64,000 nt of DNA, from IMG/VR virus record IMGVR_UViG_3300031964_000018; one strand, given 5' to 3'. Position 1 is the first letter of the stretch. Every line of letters starts with the position of its first letter. Shown piece by piece: positions 1 to 33,071 of the stretch. The DNA is from a virus. The notes below the pieces were generated by a model. It was not told the DNA's origin, did no database searches, and was given only the letters and a program-made list of their open reading frames with translations. Made by a program: the position numbers and the translations under genes.

Positions 1-126
1 CTGCACTCCCTGCACTCCCTGCACTCCCTGCACTCCCTGCACTCCCTGCACTCCCTGCACTCCCTGCACTCCCTGCACTCCCTGCACTCCCTGCACTCCC
101 TGCACTCCCTGCACTCCCTGCACTCC
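1..126. repeat. Perfect tandem array of the 9-bp unit CTGCACTCC, 14 copies, truncated by the window edge
   Basis: Read directly. The unit repeats without mismatch from nt 1 to 126 and is followed by CCTAATAG. It abuts the stop codon (128-130) of minus-strand ORF 128-427. All frames are open across the array. Confidence 0.95.
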
Positions 127-597: not shown

Positions 598-1161
598 CTA
601 CATGGCCAAACCATACACCTTGGCCAACGTCTCCAGGCACTCCCGGAACCGGCGACCGAAATACAATTCCCAGCTTTCGCCCTTCAGTCCACGCCTGCCT
701 GCCACCTGTGCCATGCTAAAACCGCCTACGAGGACGTCCTGGGCGATCCTGGCTCCCTCCTCACCCATCCTACGGTCTGCCTTCGTTAGCCTACCTACCG
801 CCTTCGCCTGGGCGTCTGTGATGCCTTCTGGCGCCAACCCTCCGGAAACGTATTCCTTTGCCGGGTCGATTGCCTTCGGACCACGCTCTGCCTTCTCCCA
901 ATCCCGCTGATAGGCCCGGCCGCCCTCGTATTGCGCGTCGTCGATGTATTTCCGCGCGTGCTGCTGCGCCAATGGGTCCGACCGAAGGCTGCGGACTACC
1001 CACACCTTGTCGCCGGGATTGACCGGCATCGGGTCGTCTATCTCGAACGTATCCACGATGGCATCCTTGGGCAGCTCGGTTGCCCTGCGATCGTGAGTCG
1101 CTGGTGCCATATCAGTTGCAGGGTTGAACGGTTTTCGAAGTTTCTTGTTTGCCTTAGCCAT
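598..1161 (-). CDS. Hypothetical protein (187 aa) with a C-terminal HTH-like segment; candidate late-gene regulator by position
   Basis: Track ORF. ATGA overlap with the upstream ORF at 1161. The C-terminal segment ARIAQDVLVGGFSMAQVAGRRG looks like a helix-turn-helix. The gene lies immediately upstream of the promoter/terminator module. Function is inference only. Confidence 0.6.
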   Translation of the reverse strand: MAKANKKLRKPFNPATDMAPATHDRRATELPKDAIVDTFEIDDPMPVNPGDKVWVVRSLRSDPLAQQHARKYIDDAQYEGGRAYQRDWEKAERGPKAIDPAKEYVSGGLAPEGITDAQAKAVGRLTKADRRMGEEGARIAQDVLVGGFSMAQVAGRRGLKGESWELYFGRRFRECLETLAKVYGLAM

Positions 1162-13089: not shown

Positions 13090-13671
13090 CTATTTCCCCA
13101 GAACTCGTTGAACTGTGCTGACGCCCACCTTGAGCGTCTTGGCGATCTTGATCTTGCCGTATCCCTCGGCCCGTAAGCGCCTGATGTCGGCGTCGGTCGT
13201 CATGTCGGAAAACTTCCGACCGATATGCTTGCCATCTTTTTTTGCCCTAGCCTGCCCGGCCATGACCCGCTCGCGGATCATGCCGCGCTCGAACTCAGCG
13301 ATGACGCCGAGCATCTGAAACATCATCCGACCGGCGACTGTCGAGGTATCCAGGCCCTGCTGATGCAGAAAAAGATCCACACCTTTGTCATGCAATGCCT
13401 GAAGGATACCGAGAAGGTCGACCAACGATCTCCCCAGGCGATCGACTGACCACGTTGCCACCATGTCGAACTCTTTCGAGTTGACGGCCTTCAACAGCGC
13501 GTCCAAACCTGGGCGCTTGTCCCTGCCCTTCGATCCTGAGATCCCTTCGTCCTGGAAAATCTTGACGATCTTCCATCCCGAGCGAGCGGAGACCTCCGTC
13601 AGTGCGAGCATCTGGTTGTCGGTCGTCTGCTCGCCCGTCGATACGCGGAGATAGAGTGCGACCCGTTTCAT
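13090..13671 (-). CDS. Small serine recombinase (resolvase/invertase family, 193 aa)
   Basis: N-terminus MKRVALYLRVSTGEQ with the catalytic-Ser context, then VDRLGRS and a C-terminal HTH (KIAKTLKVGVSTVQRVL). Confidence 0.9.
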   Translation of the reverse strand: MKRVALYLRVSTGEQTTDNQMLALTEVSARSGWKIVKIFQDEGISGSKGRDKRPGLDALLKAVNSKEFDMVATWSVDRLGRSLVDLLGILQALHDKGVDLFLHQQGLDTSTVAGRMMFQMLGVIAEFERGMIRERVMAGQARAKKDGKHIGRKFSDMTTDADIRRLRAEGYGKIKIAKTLKVGVSTVQRVLGK

Positions 13672-13785
13672 GATGAAGCCCTCAAATTGAGGGACCGGGG
13701 TTTCTCTCGGGTTGCGTTCCAACGGATCGCGACGAATGCGACGTTCAGGAGAAGCCAACCTGTGATGATGTAGATGATTGTCATT

Positions 13786-13885
13786 GCCTACCTACCTACT
13801 GATTCGGCGTGTGGGCAAATAGGTAGGCGAATCGGTAGGCAGTGTCAAACCCTATTTGACTACCACCTACCTGCCTGCTATAAAT
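13786..13885. promoter_or_regulatory. Left immunity control region: TAGGTAGG-type half-sites, a GANTC-containing core and the repressor promoter TTGACT-N17-TATAAA
   Basis: Elements read in order: GCCTACCTACCTAC-TGATTCGGC-N8-AAATAGGTAGGC at 13786-13828, further GGTAGGC at 13834-13840, and a plus-strand -35 at 13856-13861 and -10 at 13879-13884 whose spacer contains CCTACCTGCC. Confidence 0.6.
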
Positions 13886-13928: not shown

Positions 13929-14798
13929 ATGAACGGCGACAAGATTTTTGATCGTTGTGATGAGCTGGGACTGTCTTGGAAGGCATTATCCCTGGCCCTC
14001 AAAGACGAGAACGGTGTCCCGAGGTCTCACAACTACATACAGAAGTTCTTCAGGGAGGGCGTCGGTGGCCATGAGGGGTTCGACGAACGTGACAGCAAGA
14101 CGCTGTCCCACATCCTTGGCCTACCTCTGTCGGTAGTGTCCGGTCCGGATACTAATCCACCGAATCGCAACAAGCTGCGTGACAGAGCCAAATTCAACAA
14201 AGGGCGAGAGCTTCACACATTCGATTCTTCGACGGGGACGTTTAAGCCTGTCAATCCAGTCAAGAAGTTGACTCAAATTAAATCGAAAACCAGCAAATCA
14301 TTAACCCAAAAAAATTTAGTCCTCATTCAAAACAAACCTTCGTCTGATCCTCGACATAATTCACTTGACGATGTCTACCTACCGGCCCAGATCTACGGCG
14401 CGGCTGATTTGCCGGTCTACGGGACCGAGCAGGACCGCAGTGGAGGCGCTCTGATCGTGAATAAGGCTGCAGTTAAAGCGGAACAAAGACCACCGCACTT
14501 AATGAATTCTCGCAATGGGTACGGAATAATTGTTAGGGGGAACGATTCTGCTCCGAGAATAGAAAACGGGGAGACGGTCTACTTCAATCCTGATAAAGCT
14601 CCAGCAGACGGAGATACTTGTATCTTCCACAGTGGGGTTGACTGCGACTCGCTCGCCGTTATACGCAAGCTTCAGCGTTTCAGCGAAGAGACGTGGTTTG
14701 TCAGCCGGTTCTTACCAGACAGCGAAGTCATTGAACTAAAGCGAGAGGAATGGCCCGTGTGCCACGTTTGGGCCGGGTCTGAGCCGGCTAGATACTAA
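13929..14798 (+). CDS. Phage repressor of the LexA/CI S24-peptidase type (289 aa)
   Basis: An N-terminal HTH-like domain is joined by a low-complexity linker to a C-terminal S24-like domain (VRGNDSAPRIENGETVYF...GDTCIF...AVIRKL) with Ser and Lys in the expected contexts. Confidence 0.75.
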   Translation: MNGDKIFDRCDELGLSWKALSLALKDENGVPRSHNYIQKFFREGVGGHEGFDERDSKTLSHILGLPLSVVSGPDTNPPNRNKLRDRAKFNKGRELHTFDSSTGTFKPVNPVKKLTQIKSKTSKSLTQKNLVLIQNKPSSDPRHNSLDDVYLPAQIYGAADLPVYGTEQDRSGGALIVNKAAVKAEQRPPHLMNSRNGYGIIVRGNDSAPRIENGETVYFNPDKAPADGDTCIFHSGVDCDSLAVIRKLQRFSEETWFVSRFLPDSEVIELKREEWPVCHVWAGSEPARY

Positions 14799-15027: not shown

Positions 15028-15077
15028 GCCTGCCTACCTATTTGGTGTTGCCGAATCAAAAGTAGGTAGGTAGGTAT
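15028..15077. promoter_or_regulatory. Right immunity control region, an inverted copy of the 13786-13830 element
   Basis: GCCTGCCTACCTATTTGG-TGTT-GCCGAATCA-AAAGTAGGTAGGTAGGTA. Its reverse complement aligns with CCTACCTACCTAC-TGATTCGGC-...-AAATAGGTAGGC on the left side. Confidence 0.6.
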
Positions 15078-28428: not shown

Positions 28429-28674
28429 CTAACCAGAAATTGGGGCAGCCTTAGTCCCGATCCACGTCCCGCAGAACGCCCCCGCCATCGCCGGGATGAT
28501 CATCCAGTGATTGTCGACGTAGTTGATCGTGGAGAATGATCCGAGCGCGATGATTGCGGCTGCTAACCCGCCGGCACGCCACCGATGCCCGCCGTTGAGA
28601 TATAGGGTGTACCGCGCCCAGACGACGTCTAGGGCGAACAGGGTGAAGAAGACGATCGCGGCTTGGAGGATCAT
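28429..28674 (-). CDS. Membrane protein (81 aa, about 3 hydrophobic helices)
   Basis: Track ORF. It is the last gene of the minus-strand block before the att region. Confidence 0.65.
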   Translation of the reverse strand: MILQAAIVFFTLFALDVVWARYTLYLNGGHRWRAGGLAAAIIALGSFSTINYVDNHWMIIPAMAGAFCGTWIGTKAAPISG

Positions 28675-28734
28675 GACCTCTCCCTCATGATCTGCTTGAT
28701 CCGATCCATCGAGACCGGCGCATAGTGATGTCTC

Positions 28735-29013
28735 TCATTTCTTCCCCCTCTTCGTCGACAGCGTCAGCTCCCGCCGCGAAACGATCATGCCAACAGGAAT
28801 CGTCATTGTATTGCCGACGACCTCTTCATGGAGATCCTCGTTCGATACGGACGCCGCGACCGACACAGCCTTGTCCGTTTCCTTCACCAGCCAGCCGCGG
28901 GTGATCACCTGTTCCGGCGCGGCGATGTCCTTGATCGAGGTCCAGCTCTCGCTGTTGGATGATGCGTCGTCCCACACGATCTCGACGAACGGGTATGGAG
29001 GTTTGTAGGTCAT
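28735..29013 (-). CDS. Hypothetical protein (92 aa)
   Basis: Track ORF. Confidence 0.6.
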   Translation of the reverse strand: MTYKPPYPFVEIVWDDASSNSESWTSIKDIAAPEQVITRGWLVKETDKAVSVAASVSNEDLHEEVVGNTMTIPVGMIVSRRELTLSTKRGKK

Positions 29014-29171
29014 GACGGCTCCGGAATGGTGAAGGTTAACGTGTACTCGGTCGGCGGCTGGAAGATCAGGTTGAGGTAGACCGTCTTGGTTACCGGATCG
29101 ACGAAGTGAGTCTCTACGCCAACGAACTCGTACCCCTCATCGATCAAGCCGTAGATTTCCTCGTCGGTCAC
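29010..29171 (-). CDS. Hypothetical protein (53 aa), GTG start
   Basis: In-frame GTG preceded by GGAGGT (CTGGAGGTCGCTGTGACC). The long N-terminal extension in the track ORF is Arg-rich and unlikely to be translated. Confidence 0.45.
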   Translation of the reverse strand: MTDEEIYGLIDEGYEFVGVETHFVDPVTKTVYLNLIFQPPTEYTLTFTIPEPS

Positions 29172-29236
29172 AGCGACCTCCAGTTGGCTATTGCATAGAT
29201 CCCGATGACGACCAGGCAGAAGATGAGGGCGCTCAT
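29168..29236 (-). CDS. Micro-ORF encoding a 22-aa hydrophobic peptide (MSALIFCLVVIGIYAIANWRSL)
   Basis: Read by eye. ATGA overlap upstream and GTGA overlap downstream. Confidence 0.35.
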   Translation of the reverse strand: MSALIFCLVVIGIYAIANWRSL

Positions 29237-29517
29237 GCTGCCATCGCTTCCATCTCGATCGTGCCAGTGCCGGCCTGACCACCAGGGATCATGTTCGGAT
29301 CCGTGGCCGAGTTCAGGATCCGGATGCCGTTCGACCAGAGCCCCTGAAGGTCTGACAAGCTTTCGCCGTCGGGGTGCGCCTTGAACAGATGGATGGCCTT
29401 GGTGATCTGGTCAGCCGCAGCAAGCATCCGACCCTTCACCTTGGTGTCCCGCTCGATCATCGCAGCGTTGCGAAGCTGTAGCGTCAGGCTCTTGCCCGTA
29501 TCGTAATCCATCTTCAT
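29233..29517 (-). CDS. Hypothetical protein (94 aa)
   Basis: Internal ATG (MKMDYDTGKS...) forms an ATGA overlap with the HNH gene stop. Confidence 0.55.
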   Translation of the reverse strand: MKMDYDTGKSLTLQLRNAAMIERDTKVKGRMLAAADQITKAIHLFKAHPDGESLSDLQGLWSNGIRILNSATDPNMIPGGQAGTGTIEMEAMAA

Positions 29518-29930
29518 GCTCTTAGCTCCCTGTGGTGGCGCCATCTGTCTAGGTTGTTCTGTGATCGTGTGCCCCAATAGAGGTGATTGGGATTGACACA
29601 CGCCTCGTGACCATTGCCGCAACTGTGACAACCCTCATGCGACAGCGAGGGCTTTTTTCCTTTGACGCACTGAAGGATGAAGACGTGAACATCCATCGGT
29701 TCGCTATCGATGTTGATGCGTCCGTAACCGTGTGCCTTCCCGTATGGGAACGTTAGGCATTCGTTGCCGTCATAAGGTATCGCCACTTCATCGACCCAGC
29801 GACGAGCCTCGCCCTTGTCGATACCACCGGCAGAGGCGTCACCGTGCCTCCACCATCTCTTGTAGTGTGGATTGCAGTATCCTCGCGCGTAATGCTTGCG
29901 CTCGCATCCATCTATGGCGCAGATTTTCAT
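29514..29930 (-). CDS. HNH endonuclease (138 aa)
   Basis: N-terminal Cys/His zinc motif (CAIDGCERKHYARGYCNPHY) and CHSCGNGHEACVNPNHLYWGT...N. Confidence 0.8.
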   Translation of the reverse strand: MKICAIDGCERKHYARGYCNPHYKRWWRHGDASAGGIDKGEARRWVDEVAIPYDGNECLTFPYGKAHGYGRINIDSEPMDVHVFILQCVKGKKPSLSHEGCHSCGNGHEACVNPNHLYWGTRSQNNLDRWRHHRELRA

Positions 29931-31165
29931 TGATCCGACCCCATAATCATCTCAGGCGTCATGGTGTTGCGGAACACTTCACCGAAGTGCCTCGAATAGG
30001 TGATGACCTTCGCTGAGCGACCGGTTGGCCATCCGCCGTTGGACTCGTGCGCATCCGGTGCCGCCAGCGTCTCGTGCTGCTCGACCTTCATCAGGTTCTT
30101 GGTCAGTAACGCATCCGAGTGACGATGACCGAGATGGGCATACGAGAACTTCGTTCGCCCGTAGATTTCACGGAACCGGCTGGCGAACACGTCATCGACT
30201 TGTCCTGGTCCGCGCTTGTGTCCGTGATGATAGAACAACGATGTCAAGCCGAACTCGTAGGCGTAGTAGGAGCTGGGCGAGCGATCGACCGTGAGCCGCG
30301 GCTCGTTGTCAAAGAACGCGGCAAACATTTCTCTGAGCCATGCCTCGCCCGACGGATCGTGATTGGCGTCAGCCATGATCCAGTGGACGCGCTCATACTT
30401 GTCGAGCATCATCTTGCCCATCCGGCGCAAGACCCGAATGATGACGCGGATCATCTTCTGGAGTCGGCTGTCGGAGTCGAGGACGTGCGCGTGCGTCGGG
30501 GTGACGCTGATCTGTGCGTCGTAATGCAGGAGGTCACCTAGTTGGGCCAGGATGCCCGTCGAGGCGTCCGGAGACAGTCTGATGGCCATTGAGAACCAGT
30601 CGAGATACATCTGCTCGGCGATCTTCAGATCATAGTCCGATCCCGTCTCCTCGCCCCACGACAGCTTGCCGAAGTGCGCGTCGGTCATGGTGTACTGGTT
30701 TGCAAGATCCTCACGACGATGCATCTCGATTAGAGGAGAAGGTTCCATCCTTGGAATCTCTTCCTTGAGCGCATCGACAACGGCCCGCATCGCCAGATGT
30801 CTGGCCTTCGCCTCTGGGGTCTCGATCGTCCACTGCAGCTTGATGTTATTGTCGCCGTCGGCAAGCGTGGACCGTCGGGCAATATCGAAGCCCGGCATCA
30901 GCTCGAGCTGGGGCCCGACCTCAGGCACCTGACGGACGGAAGTTCGAACAACGTCGCCGTTCTTGTCGGTGGTCGTGTTGGTGGACGCGATCTGGAATCC
31001 AGGAAGGACATAGTCCGTTCCCATCAAACCGGCGAGTGCTGCCTTCTTGAGTTGGTACTGAATGCCGCCACGGGAAAGGCCGAGGTGTGCTGCCGCCATG
31101 GTCTGGTCTTCGTCACAGGCATAGTAGGCATCGACGGCCCGTTGAAGTGTCTCGATCGCAATCAT
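29927..31165 (-). CDS. Metallophosphoesterase (calcineurin-like) with an N-terminal HTH domain (412 aa)
   Basis: Ordered motifs TDAHFG (DxH), LGDLLHYD (GD), ADANHD (GNHD-like), YHHGH and LGHRHSD (GHxH). The N-terminal segment AAHLGLSRGGIQYQLKKA is HTH-like. Confidence 0.7.
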   Translation of the reverse strand: MIAIETLQRAVDAYYACDEDQTMAAAHLGLSRGGIQYQLKKAALAGLMGTDYVLPGFQIASTNTTTDKNGDVVRTSVRQVPEVGPQLELMPGFDIARRSTLADGDNNIKLQWTIETPEAKARHLAMRAVVDALKEEIPRMEPSPLIEMHRREDLANQYTMTDAHFGKLSWGEETGSDYDLKIAEQMYLDWFSMAIRLSPDASTGILAQLGDLLHYDAQISVTPTHAHVLDSDSRLQKMIRVIIRVLRRMGKMMLDKYERVHWIMADANHDPSGEAWLREMFAAFFDNEPRLTVDRSPSSYYAYEFGLTSLFYHHGHKRGPGQVDDVFASRFREIYGRTKFSYAHLGHRHSDALLTKNLMKVEQHETLAAPDAHESNGGWPTGRSAKVITYSRHFGEVFRNTMTPEMIMGSDQ

Positions 31166-31338
31166 CGTGTAATGCTCCTGGTATCGCTCAGCTTCAGACC
31201 AGCATTGGCCCGCTCATAGTCCGGTTCGAATTCGGTGATGGTCTTCATCTTCACCGCTATCCACCACTCATGGCAGACCGCACACTCGACGCGGTAGCCA
31301 CCCTGGTGGAAGCGGAGGACTTCGTGGACGCAACTCAA
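31162..31338 (-). CDS. Small Cys/His-containing protein (58 aa), TTG start
   Basis: In-frame TTG overlaps the stop of ORF 31335-31544. The upstream part of the track ORF is Arg/Ser-rich. Confidence 0.4.
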   Translation of the reverse strand: MSCVHEVLRFHQGGYRVECAVCHEWWIAVKMKTITEFEPDYERANAGLKLSDTRSITR

Positions 31339-31544
31339 ACCGGCACCTCTTCGATCACCAGCCGACGAGAGCTGTGAACGTAGGTGTCTGGCAGATGCTG
31401 GCCCTGGACGAGAATAGTGCGGCTGGCTTCTTTCCATTCGTCTGTCATCTTCTTGGCGACGGGGTCCCAGGCGAGATCCTCAACGATTACGACGATGGGC
31501 CAGTGCGAATTCTCTTGGCATTGAACGTGAACTTTGGTGGTCAT
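31335..31544 (-). CDS. Hypothetical protein (69 aa)
   Basis: Internal ATG (MTTKVHVQCQ...) forms an ATGA overlap with the micro-ORF upstream. Confidence 0.5.
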   Translation of the reverse strand: MTTKVHVQCQENSHWPIVVIVEDLAWDPVAKKMTDEWKEASRTILVQGQHLPDTYVHSSRRLVIEEVPV

Positions 31545-31618
31545 GATTTGGGTCCTGTGGAGATGTAGAAAATGAAGAAGAGGAACATGAGGAAGATGAC
31601 GTCGTTGGAATCCATCAT
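31541..31618 (-). CDS. Micro-ORF encoding a 25-aa hydrophobic peptide (MMDSNDVIFLMFLFFIFYISTGPKS)
   Basis: Read by eye. ATGA overlaps at both ends. Confidence 0.35.
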   Translation of the reverse strand: MMDSNDVIFLMFLFFIFYISTGPKS

Positions 31619-31875
31619 GCTGCAGCACCTTTGCCGGCCGTGTAGAGACGGACCGGAACTTGCCAACCGATCACAGACAGCATTACGAACCCTCCGTTGT
31701 TCAGGATGTACAAGTCCTGCGCTGTCGGCTTCCATGCGCTGACGCATTCATTGTTGCCGTAAGAATCTTTGCGGTAGATGATCGGTAACGTGCCGCACGA
31801 ACCATTCTCTTCGGTCCATCCAAGCGGCGCGCCAGGATTGTGGGTCGCGCCTTTAATAGTTGCTACGTCCATCAC
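31615..31875 (-). CDS. Hypothetical protein (86 aa)
   Basis: Track ORF. Confidence 0.55.
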   Translation of the reverse strand: MMDVATIKGATHNPGAPLGWTEENGSCGTLPIIYRKDSYGNNECVSAWKPTAQDLYILNNGGFVMLSVIGWQVPVRLYTAGKGAAA

Positions 31876-32120
31876 TTCACCCCATGCTTCTTGAAGCAGG
31901 CTTCCGCTTGCTTGATCATGTCTTCGGTTGCACCCTGGGAACGTGCCCAGGCCTTGATGTCGTCGGTGGTCATGCCCTGCTGACGAGCTGTCGCAACCGC
32001 TGCACGAATGTCCGCGCAGTAGTCTGAGACTTCGGCGGCGTGAGCGAAGAGCGTAGCCATCATGAGGATGACGAAGGCGAAGAAGGCGCCGACGAGAGCG
32101 ACGTGGAAGTGCTTGATCAT
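31872..32120 (-). CDS. Small exported or membrane-anchored protein (82 aa)
   Basis: Internal ATG ([30 protein letters not shown]) gives a signal-peptide-like N-terminus. Confidence 0.55.
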   Translation of the reverse strand: MIKHFHVALVGAFFAFVILMMATLFAHAAEVSDYCADIRAAVATARQQGMTTDDIKAWARSQGATEDMIKQAEACFKKHGVK

Positions 32121-32206
32121 GGCGTCAACACGGCCCCAAGGAAGATGATGATCGGGCCGATGATGATGAAGCCGATGACGAAGCCGGCGATGAGGTACTT
32201 CATCAT
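32117..32206 (-). CDS. Micro-ORF encoding a 29-aa hydrophobic peptide ([29 protein letters not shown])
   Basis: Read by eye. ATGA overlaps at both ends. Confidence 0.4.
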
Positions 32207-32559
32207 CGGACCTCCACCGGCGCCGTGCCGCCCATTCCGATCGCGTTGGCTGCAGCGCGCGACAGATCGATGCAACGTCCACGATGGAACGGACCGCGGT
32301 CGTTGATGCGGACGACGACGCTCTTGCCGTTGTTCAGGTTGGTGACCGTTAGGTGGGCACCGAATGGATGATGCTTGTGGGCGGCGGTCAGCGCCCTCGG
32401 GTTCATGATCTCGCCGGAGGCTGTGCGCTTGCCGCCATAGCCATCGCCGGTCCCGTACTGGGATGCCTCACATCGCTCGGTAGCGAAGACCGGCTCGGAC
32501 GCGGCAGAGCACGACGCCAAGGCAATAAAGCCCAGCGCCGCAATGAGATTGCGGGACAT
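32203..32559 (-). CDS. RlpA-like (double-psi beta-barrel) lytic transglycosylase lipoprotein (118 aa)
   Basis: Lipobox LASC after [13 protein letters not shown]. The DPBB-like core reads TASGE...[27 protein letters not shown]. The ATG at 32559 is preceded by AGGTGA. Confidence 0.75.
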
Positions 32560-32600: not shown

Positions 32601-32622
32601 AAGAAAAACCCGCCAGCGGGTT
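32601..32622 (-). terminator. Short intrinsic terminator in the leader of the RlpA-like gene
   Basis: The minus strand reads AACCCGC-TGGC-GGGTT followed by TTTTCTTTG. Confidence 0.55.
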
Positions 32623-32657
32623 CATCCGGTGGCGGGGCGTGGTAATCGACTGTGTCG

Positions 32658-32710
32658 TTAGTAGGGTAGTTGACCCTTCGTGTCAAGTAGGTAGGTAGGT
32701 AGGTAGGTAT
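32658..32710 (-). promoter_or_regulatory. Sigma70-like promoter TTGACA-N17-TACTAA (minus strand) preceded by a (TACC)5 repeat; second copy of the 547-590 module
   Basis: The minus strand reads ATACCTACCTACCTACCTACCTAC-TTGACA-CGAAGGGTCAACTACCC-TACTAA. The core TTGACACGAAGG is identical to site 1. Confidence 0.6.
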
Positions 32711-32723
32711 CAAATCGGTCCTA

Positions 32724-32831
32724 TTATCTCATCAGGACCGCAAAGGCATGATCGCATGCCATGAAGGTGATCGGGGCGACCGTGAGGAACACAGTCGTCC
32801 AGATCGCCAGGATACTGAGACCTTTTCTCAT
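32724..32831 (-). CDS. Micro-ORF encoding a 35-aa membrane peptide (MRKGLSILAIWTTVFLTVAPITFMACDHAFAVLMR)
   Basis: Internal ATG of the track ORF, forming an ATGA overlap with the stop of 32828-33025. Confidence 0.4.
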   Translation of the reverse strand: MRKGLSILAIWTTVFLTVAPITFMACDHAFAVLMR

Positions 32832-33040: not shown

Positions 33041-33071
33041 AAAAAATGGCCGCGCCGGTTAAGGCGCGACC
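33041..33071 (-). terminator. Rho-independent terminator (minus strand)
   Basis: The minus strand reads GGTCGCGCC-TTAACC-GGCGCGGCC (9 bp) followed by ATTTTTTT. Confidence 0.75.

Follow-up and report, generated by a model that had tools for sequence, protein, structure and literature searches.

A promoter-terminator module shared by two unlinked operons of a temperate phage, a candidate second target of a GafZ/Q-type antiterminator

The DNA considered here, IMG/VR record IMGVR_UViG_3300031964_000018, comprises the first 64 kb of a temperate phage genome of about 72.4 kb, which has been assembled repeatedly from metagenomes (JGI, ENA, Logan). The whole stretch of 64,000 nt is called the window. 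Near its middle, an intergenic region precedes an operon that starts with a gene for an RlpA-like lipoprotein. This leader, here called module 2, contains a promoter sequence with a terminator close behind it, and part of it recurs in a second leader, module 1, near the left end of the window. The coordinates of module 2 refer to the minus strand. Its features are:

32724-32559, minus: intergenic region that holds module 2
32709-32690, minus: (TACC)5 array, followed by TAC at 32689-32687, which abuts the -35 hexamer
32675-32686, minus: TTGACACGAAGG, made up of the -35 and the six spacer nt that adjoin it; the same sequence stands at 575-564 in module 1
32686-32681, minus: -35 hexamer TTGACA, perfect consensus
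32680-32675, minus: CGAAGG, start of the 17-nt spacer
32663-32658, minus: candidate -10 hexamer TACTAA, weak (3/6 match), 17 nt after the -35
32650-32643, minus: GTCGATTA box, at about +2 to +9
32636-32600, minus: predicted intrinsic terminator; hairpin CCCGCCA.CGG/CCG.UGGCGGG at 32636-32609, then U5CU3 at 32608-32600
32569-32564, minus: Shine-Dalgarno sequence AGGTGA, which precedes the ATG at 32559

Most of these elements had been named in a preliminary description of the locus, and the TACC array, the 12-nt core, TACTAA, the hairpin with its T-run, AGGTGA and the ATG at 32559 are all present on the minus strand. The terminator is indeed a hairpin plus T-run, but it is larger than the 32601-22 originally given. 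The hairpin has 7+3 bp, a folding energy of -19.4 kcal/mol (z = -3.1 versus shuffles) and an ensemble frequency of 0.82, with no competing structure in the leader. It was recovered by our own terminator scan and by a consensus scanner. None of the Rfam families matched in the leader. The ATG lies 41 nt past the terminator. A sigma-70-type promoter sequence, a putative intrinsic terminator and co-oriented genes thus appear in this order.

Transcription is predicted to start near 32651. CACAGT overlaps the GTCGATTA box (CACAGT/GTCGATTA at about +1 to +9) and fits NANNNT, a pattern too degenerate to score. We infer that the box is a candidate pause or loading element, a concept taken from work on other antiterminators (10.1101/651190; 10.1101/2024.11.20.624540). 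Module 1 is without a clear equivalent near its start. It also lacks the inverted repeat TTGAC-N7-GTCAA, which the TTGACACGAAGG region of module 2 makes.

Module 1 is built as follows:

451-600, minus: module 1, with palindrome, TTGACACGAAGG, -10, leader hairpin, CAGCGATT and terminator
600-576, minus: palindrome GTAGGTAA-GGG-TTACCTAC, including (TACC)3TA
589-564, minus: (TACC)3 at 589-578, TA, TTGACA at 575-570 and CGAAGG at 569-564
552-547, minus: -10 hexamer GATTAT
488-457, minus: terminator hairpin plus U-tract, -22.3 kcal/mol

The exact 12-mer TTGACACGAAGG has only these two copies in the window. Sharing a 12-mer is in itself unremarkable; about 240 chance pairs are estimated for 64 kb. 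The full block common to both modules (589-564 in module 1), however, agrees in 25/26 nt with one indel, for which the chance estimate is about 1e-5. TACC-type 12-mers are also overrepresented: the window has 15 versus 0.95 expected (about 15-fold), and 0/100 shuffles reach 15. Outside the 25-nt block the two modules are about 57% identical. The remainder of the leaders had been called unrelated. This does not hold: the terminators are homologous, with CCCGCC(N)CCGGA..CCGC(N)GGCGGG and a run of T5-6 in each module, and each leader has a CAG(T)CGATT box. An identical block amid leaders of only about 57% identity is better accounted for by selection through a common trans factor than by recent duplication. 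The modules are thus an old duplication of which one short block was kept identical, which is the signature of a constrained binding site. The original contention that the two operons, which are unlinked, have a conserved cis block and the order of promoter and terminator in common for reasons other than chance is thus borne out; a chance origin is rejected in view of the 25/26 nt, the homologous terminators and the matching genomic context.

Other origins of the shared block were considered and dropped. A promoter for a T7-like single-subunit RNA polymerase does not fit a block that holds a consensus sigma-70 -35 and exists in only 2 copies. A riboswitch or RNA attenuator is hard to reconcile with a leader that has some 15 nt ahead of its hairpin, folds in no alternative way and matches nothing in Rfam. 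Crossover sites of the serine recombinase encoded at 13090-13758 also seem unlikely: modules 1 and 2 are repeated in direct orientation at a distance of 32 kb, and the arms of the operator-like sites O1-O3, described below, are 16-20 bp apart, unlike hix/gix or res subsites.

A candidate for the trans factor is encoded next to module 1:

598-1161, minus: protein of 187 aa, DUF6456 (GafA C-terminal/GafZ family)

The stop codon of this open reading frame (ORF) is 8 nt before the module 1 TACC array. The antiterminator gene would thus be directly upstream of the cassette in module 1, but not in module 2, which is 32 kb away and follows two small ORFs. Many homologues of the protein (50-60% identity) carry a precomputed PF20057 match, and many of them reside in Bradyrhizobium prophages. 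DUF6456 is the annotation of GafA homologues (PMC9638019). GafZ of Caulobacter crescentus, which corresponds to the C-terminal domain of GafA, was shown experimentally to be an antiterminator, and its binding element (ZBE) lies between -35 and -10 (PMC11150451). In module 2, TTGAC plus ACGAAGG would occupy the position of such an element. An AlphaFold model of the candidate (pLDDT 73) has its best local matches in sigma region 4 domains, which bind the -35, with a probability of 0.84-0.92 and E > 0.3. By these weak local matches, the protein may carry a sigma-region-4-like C-terminal helical domain, in keeping with what has been published on GafZ and with the sigma-R4-like motif found in Q21 (10.1101/651190).

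Inside this GafZ-like gene, about 210 bp upstream of module 1, GGTAGGTAGGCTAACGAAGG at 780-800 (minus) places an inverted TACC element beside ACGAAGG. As a third copy of the block it is no more than a lead, since ACGAAGG occurs 29 times in 72 kb and the TACC adjacency is only weakly significant (p ~0.1). The 171-aa protein encoded upstream of the GafZ-like gene was considered as a GafY-like TACC binder. This is unlikely: it has no DnaA-like or other Pfam match, and it is 73% identical to its homologue in L016, though the motifs of the two phages differ, which counts against such a role.

Relatives of the candidate protein were compared at 80 IMG/VR loci. At many of them the GafZ-like gene is followed at once by TTGAC and a phage-specific palindrome in the spacer. 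At 15/80 there is, in addition, a conserved hairpin, CCGCCCGGAGAAATCCG(N1-3)GGCGGG, with a T-run. This hairpin occurs once per locus or genome in the relatives, and twice, in modules 1 and 2, in the window. In nine complete relatives (40-58 kb) the promoter core is single-copy, as is the upstream element in 7/7 tested. Dozens of related phages thus have the unit of gene, promoter and terminator, in one copy per genome. The terminator of the cassette, including its loop GGAGAAAUCC, is conserved (L021-L087; 457-488 and 32609-32636 in the window) despite GafZ-like proteins of only 40-60% identity and differing spacers. Such conservation is more than a generic terminator needs.

Orthologous cassettes also lie directly upstream of RlpA-like genes, 75-82% identical, in other phages. 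The preliminary description would have taken absence of the motif from homologous positions in related phages as evidence against the module; these positions in L099 and L097/L098 carry the cassette. In L099, where the RlpA-like protein is 75% identical, it reads TTGACGCGTCGGGCGGATACCCG-TATAAC-N7-GTCGATTA (in short, TTGACGCGTC..-TATAAC-N7-GTCGATTA); its hairpin folds at -20.6 kcal/mol and is followed by T6. L099 and module 2 are 79% identical over the stretch that leads from the -10 to the ATG, and the context CACAGTCGATTA of the GTCGATTA box is the same in both; L099 has no TACC array, and its promoter-proximal elements differ. In L097/L098, with an RlpA-like protein 82% identical, promoter and hairpin are kept. 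By this comparison the cassette is ancestral to the RlpA-like operon, and its promoter-proximal part has been exchanged between phages, so that here it matches module 1.

Further searches yielded little. No RlpA-like gene was found in 37 related IMG/VR records. A megablast of 28-40 kb against phages gave no match, nor did the exact module motif in viral contigs or the 412-aa exonuclease-like protein of the operon in viral and genome contigs. A metagenome scan for RlpA-like genes returned distant bacterial RlpA genes only, without cassettes, and a 16-mer of the L099 promoter gave chance coding matches only.

With a somewhat better than even chance, the phage has its GafZ/Q-type antitermination cassette in two copies, and module 2 is the second of them, acting in trans before an accessory operon near the att site. 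From the observed anatomy, homology, conservation and genomic distribution of the cassette we infer promoter activity, termination, the identity of the factor and an order of events, which would be the following. The host sigma-70 RNA polymerase would start near 32651 from a perfect -35 and a weak -10. Without a phage factor it would make only an RNA of about 45-50 nt and stop at the intrinsic terminator. The DUF6456/GafZ-family protein (598-1161) would be made at the end of the early-left operon, recognise the promoter-proximal block common to modules 1 and 2, and then load on the polymerase, which would become terminator-resistant. In this way the RlpA-like/exonuclease/HNH operon would be switched on together with the genes of module 1. 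The switch would have to be protein-mediated, because the leader, with about 15 nt before the hairpin, is too short for an RNA sensor. The (TACC)n array would probably provide a second, repressive input, a prophage repressor or its Cro-like partner binding beside the -35, since the same motif builds operator-like palindromes at three early promoter regions.

The sites and genes relevant to this second input are:

13786-13875: O1, palindromic TACC/GGTA sites that overlap the two divergent promoters, one for the serine recombinase and one for the S24 repressor gene
15028-15077: O2, inverted copy of O1, past the end of the repressor gene and before the rightward early operon
L012 3905-3960, outside the window: O3, at the head of another small-gene operon
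13929-14798, plus: candidate repressor of the S24-peptidase type (CI/LexA-like), 289 aa, alternative TACC binder
13090-13758: serine recombinase gene, adjoining O1

The (TACC)5TAC motif of module 2 is the same as the arms of the palindromes at O1, O2 and O3. O1 and O2 are of the type GCCTACCTACCTAC-N16-20-(A)TAGGTAGGC and bracket the S24 repressor gene in inverted orientation. We read O1-O3 as putative operators; the inverted-repeat sites overlap the early promoters that flank the repressor gene, as would be expected for an operator set of the CI/LexA type. The arrangement of O1 and O2 may be an invertible immunity cassette. The repressor candidate matches Peptidase_S24 with E = 7.6e-4 (below the cut-off) and the transcriptional repressor family phrog_4 with 1.2e-6. 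Module 2 itself has no operator dyad: its (TACC)5 consists of direct repeats only, whereas the array of module 1 is the right arm of the compact dyad GTAGGTAA-GGG-TTACCTAC.

Relatives inform on the same place. In L016, the GafZ-like protein of which is 59% identical, AATAGGAC-T-ATCCTATT abuts the -35, and the same half-site builds the O3-equivalent palindrome of that phage. This half-site, AATAGGAC, is also found at 32720-32727 (minus), just upstream of the module 2 TACC array. The array, so the sequence suggests, replaced an older CCTA-type site or was expanded from it. A 20-mer of the L097 cassette promoter is identical to the early promoter/operator beside CI-like S24 genes in two proviruses. 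These are L227 (7520-7620) and L228, 53-kb IMG/VR proviruses, in which this early promoter is rich in CCTAT/ATAGG and lies beside two S24-type repressor-like genes. The exact 20-mer is an example of promoter/operator modules moving between phages.

Several proteins may bind the TACC motif. An immunity repressor or a Cro-like partner is suggested as the binder upstream of the -35 by the TACC motifs at O1-O3, the L016 half-site and the L097 20-mer, and we give a repressor not quite an even chance. The GafZ-like protein itself is possible, if rather doubtful; many distant relatives have a cassette-specific palindrome at that same place, which would fit its binding instead. Some other protein is unlikely. 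The preliminary description had argued for one dedicated trans-acting factor. A common factor is still argued for, with the DUF6456 gene beside module 1 as candidate, but the block probably holds two elements for two factors. A speculative and rather unlikely variant, drawn by analogy, sees the block as a composite AND gate: the TACC array would be a direct-repeat loading site of the GafZ-family protein, like the two 8-bp subsites of the Q21 binding element (QBE), and the motif would have been adopted by the immunity operators. If this were true, repressor and antiterminator would compete for TACC DNA at five promoter regions, the repeat number would set the loading stoichiometry per target, and GafZ-type antiterminators would run multi-promoter regulons in temperate phages, beyond the single clusters of gene transfer agents (GTAs).

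The signs of a repressor invite a simpler explanation: (TACC)n plus TTGACACGAAGG could be a promoter/operator unit bound by the S24 repressor, with no dedicated antitermination at all. The hairpin would then end the upstream lysis/late transcript as a terminator or insulator, or act as a leaky attenuator, and the RlpA operon would need derepression and partial read-through. TACC motifs are indeed found at all early promoter regions, and the leftward early promoter likewise begins TTGACAC and has CCTACC in its spacer; the 20-mer shared by L097 with the two proviruses points the same way, as does the loss of the T-run in L097. Yet the terminator, being downstream of the promoter, would stop the transcripts of this very promoter, and the two elements follow each other in the same way in module 1, L099 and many cassettes beside GafZ-like genes. 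The upstream genes, moreover, are already ended by a separate strong terminator at 33046, and the hairpin sequence is that of the family-specific cassette terminator. We consider this explanation unlikely. Quite improbable, in our view, is that modules 1 and 2 are genes for small RNAs of about 50 and 90 nt, which act in trans or bind a phage protein while the downstream genes are transcribed from elsewhere. A promoter with a terminator 50-90 nt on is, of course, the anatomy of a small-RNA gene, and conservation of the loop GGAGAAAUCC extends to phages with GafZ-like proteins of only 40-60% identity. The single-stranded 5' part, however, has no 8-nt complement in the phage, and an Rfam match is missing here too. 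The downstream genes, which are co-oriented, have their start 40-50 nt past the terminator and lack any other promoter, and in relatives the cassette is always coupled to a GafZ-family gene. Such RNAs would in any case be compatible with antitermination rather than exclude it (compare lambda 6S RNA).

The array itself had been suspected to be slippage-prone and to tune promoter strength by its repeat number. As a contingency locus it would phase-vary. Tetranucleotide tracts are classic substrates of slippage, and the copy number differs between the modules, 3 in module 1 and 5 in module 2. Within each module, however, it was constant: (TACC)5 in 6/6 module 2 assemblies and (TACC)3 in the window and 10 further module 1 assemblies, all of which represent essentially one strain (99.99-100% identical) as consensus contigs that hide minority variants. 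The tract is also upstream of the -35, so that a change in length leaves the -35/-10 spacing intact, and the same motif occurs elsewhere in fixed palindromic arrangements. We regard this possibility as very remote.

Antitermination by the GafZ-like protein, our preferred explanation, has to face a number of adverse points. The promoter of module 2 was not called by a consensus promoter scanner, and only 3/6 of its -10 match. The ORF at 598-1161 matches PF20057 with E = 4.5e-4 and 20.8 bits, below the cut-off of 26.3; its model gave no structural match at E < 0.001 and no significant PDB neighbour. GafZ of C. crescentus has a single target and requires GafY and IHF (PMC11150451), and a GafY-like DnaA-type domain was not detected in the gene upstream of the ORF. 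The operon of module 1 consists of a 99-aa gene and a short repeat-containing ORF, followed by a convergent block of small genes; it is not joined to structural genes, and the 12-mer is absent from the putative late-operon leader. In L097/L098 the hairpin is without a T-run, which implies that the terminator is dispensable in some relatives. Finally, no relative was found with both cassettes on one contig, and the matching of the promoter-proximal block within one genome is documented for this phage only.

The operon that module 2 would control and its surroundings are:

28429-32559, minus: module 2 operon, about 12 genes
32559-32203, minus: gene of the RlpA-like DPBB lipoprotein (DPBB_1, 9.4e-22; phrog_7930)
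31165-29927, minus: PHROG-704 "DNA repair exonuclease", 412 aa
29930-29514, minus: HNH endonuclease
59173, 50092, 47730, 37140 and 33046, minus: strong intrinsic terminators in, or ending, the head-tail-lysis operon

Several small ORFs complete the operon. It is regarded as att-proximal because its end is about 470 bp from a convergent tyrosine integrase gene. The interval from the terminator at 33046 to module 2 is occupied by two small ORFs (33025-32724) without a promoter of their own. The five terminators on the late strand and these two ORFs trapped between terminators argue for processive read-through in this phage.

The first gene behind module 1 (128-427, minus) encodes a 99-aa protein with a weak, sub-threshold match to the RNA polymerase-binding domain of SutA (E = 4.3e-4). 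Should this match be real, a small RNA polymerase-binding late regulator may be under the control of the switch. Just after this gene, a tandem array, (GGGAGTGCA)n with at least 14 copies, fills window positions 1-126 (L012 1-150), and all long assemblies of the phage break inside it. At the corresponding place, L016 has four iteron-like repeats, TTCCTATTCACGAAT, spaced 69-105 bp. The region may be an origin, a partition site or a packaging site. Past the convergent block, as read in L012, a 770-bp intergenic region is followed by the packaging/head/tail/lysis operon on the minus strand. In the putative leader of this late operon (L012 4415-4460; about 68,000 in extended coordinates), the place of the -35 is taken by a perfect dyad, GTAAGGAATACCTTAC, behind which come TATAGG, 7 nt and GTCGATTAG. 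The succession of -10-like hexamer, N7 and GTCGATTA is as in module 2 and L099, without terminator or 12-mer. It may be an activator-dependent late promoter.

Among known systems, the closest are those of the DUF6456 family, to which the candidate factor may belong and with which it may share a sigma-R4-like helix-turn-helix: GafZ (with GafY/IHF) of the C. crescentus GTA (CcGTA; PMC11150451) and the GafA C-terminal domain of Rhodobacter capsulatus (PMC9638019). Like CcGTA, the phage has a candidate binding element at the -35 of a sigma-70-type promoter or directly behind it and downstream terminators to be bypassed, and it belongs to an alphaproteobacterial lineage, to judge by the homologues in Bradyrhizobium prophages. 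In contrast to CcGTA, which has one target and a terminator after the first gene, there would be two targets here, with the terminator in the leader 15 nt after the start. Neither a GafY-like partner nor an IHF site was identified in this phage, which is a temperate phage and not a GTA, and the element is not a clear palindrome (TTGAC-N7-GTCAA in module 2, none in module 1).

The lambdoid Q/PR'/SDPE/tR' systems (SDPE, sigma-dependent pause element) of Q-lambda, Q21 and Q82 (10.1101/651190, PMC6606751, PMC9388147) share the succession of antiterminator gene, strong promoter, short leader and intrinsic terminator. The Q factor binds promoter DNA, which by analogy may be counted as a further likeness. 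The site bound by Q21 consists of two 8-bp subsites in direct repeat and sets a precedent for loading at direct repeats like (TACC)n, and the terminated leader RNA would correspond to lambda 6S RNA. The differences are that the candidate protein resembles none of the Q families in sequence, nor significantly in structure, that module 2 is unlinked to the factor gene and would control accessory genes instead of head, tail and lysis genes, and that the sigma-dependent pause element is here a candidate only.

Control in trans is known from BrrG, a Q21-like protein, and the bgtA-K cluster of the Bartonella GTA (BaGTA; 10.1101/2024.11.20.624540), where antiterminator gene and target promoter are at separate loci. 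The BaGTA promoter TTGACA-N17-TATCAT, with a -10-like element just downstream and an attenuating leader, resembles module 2. The protein family is different, however (BrrG has a Q21-like fold), the BaGTA leader is long and there is a single target. AlpA of Pseudomonas aeruginosa (PMC7969949) is likewise a phage-derived processive antiterminator that loads at a promoter element; its protein family is unrelated, and its element is chromosomal and belongs to a programmed-cell-death system.

Most likely, module 2 extends, in a modest way, a type of late-gene switch that is already known. Were this wrong, it would simply be a promoter that carries an operator and has a terminator in its leader. Experiments on GafZ-type antitermination have so far been confined to the Caulobacter GTA, with one target. 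The phage would offer two natural target promoters for one GafZ-family protein, which share only 25 nt and the family-typical terminator, and the swapped promoter-proximal elements of its relatives would be a ready-made mutational map of GafZ-type recognition and loading. For annotation, a promoter followed by a CCGCC..GGCGG hairpin would mark GafZ-dependent units in alphaproteobacterial phages and prophages. Accessory, att-proximal operons, it would appear, can be wired into the same switch.

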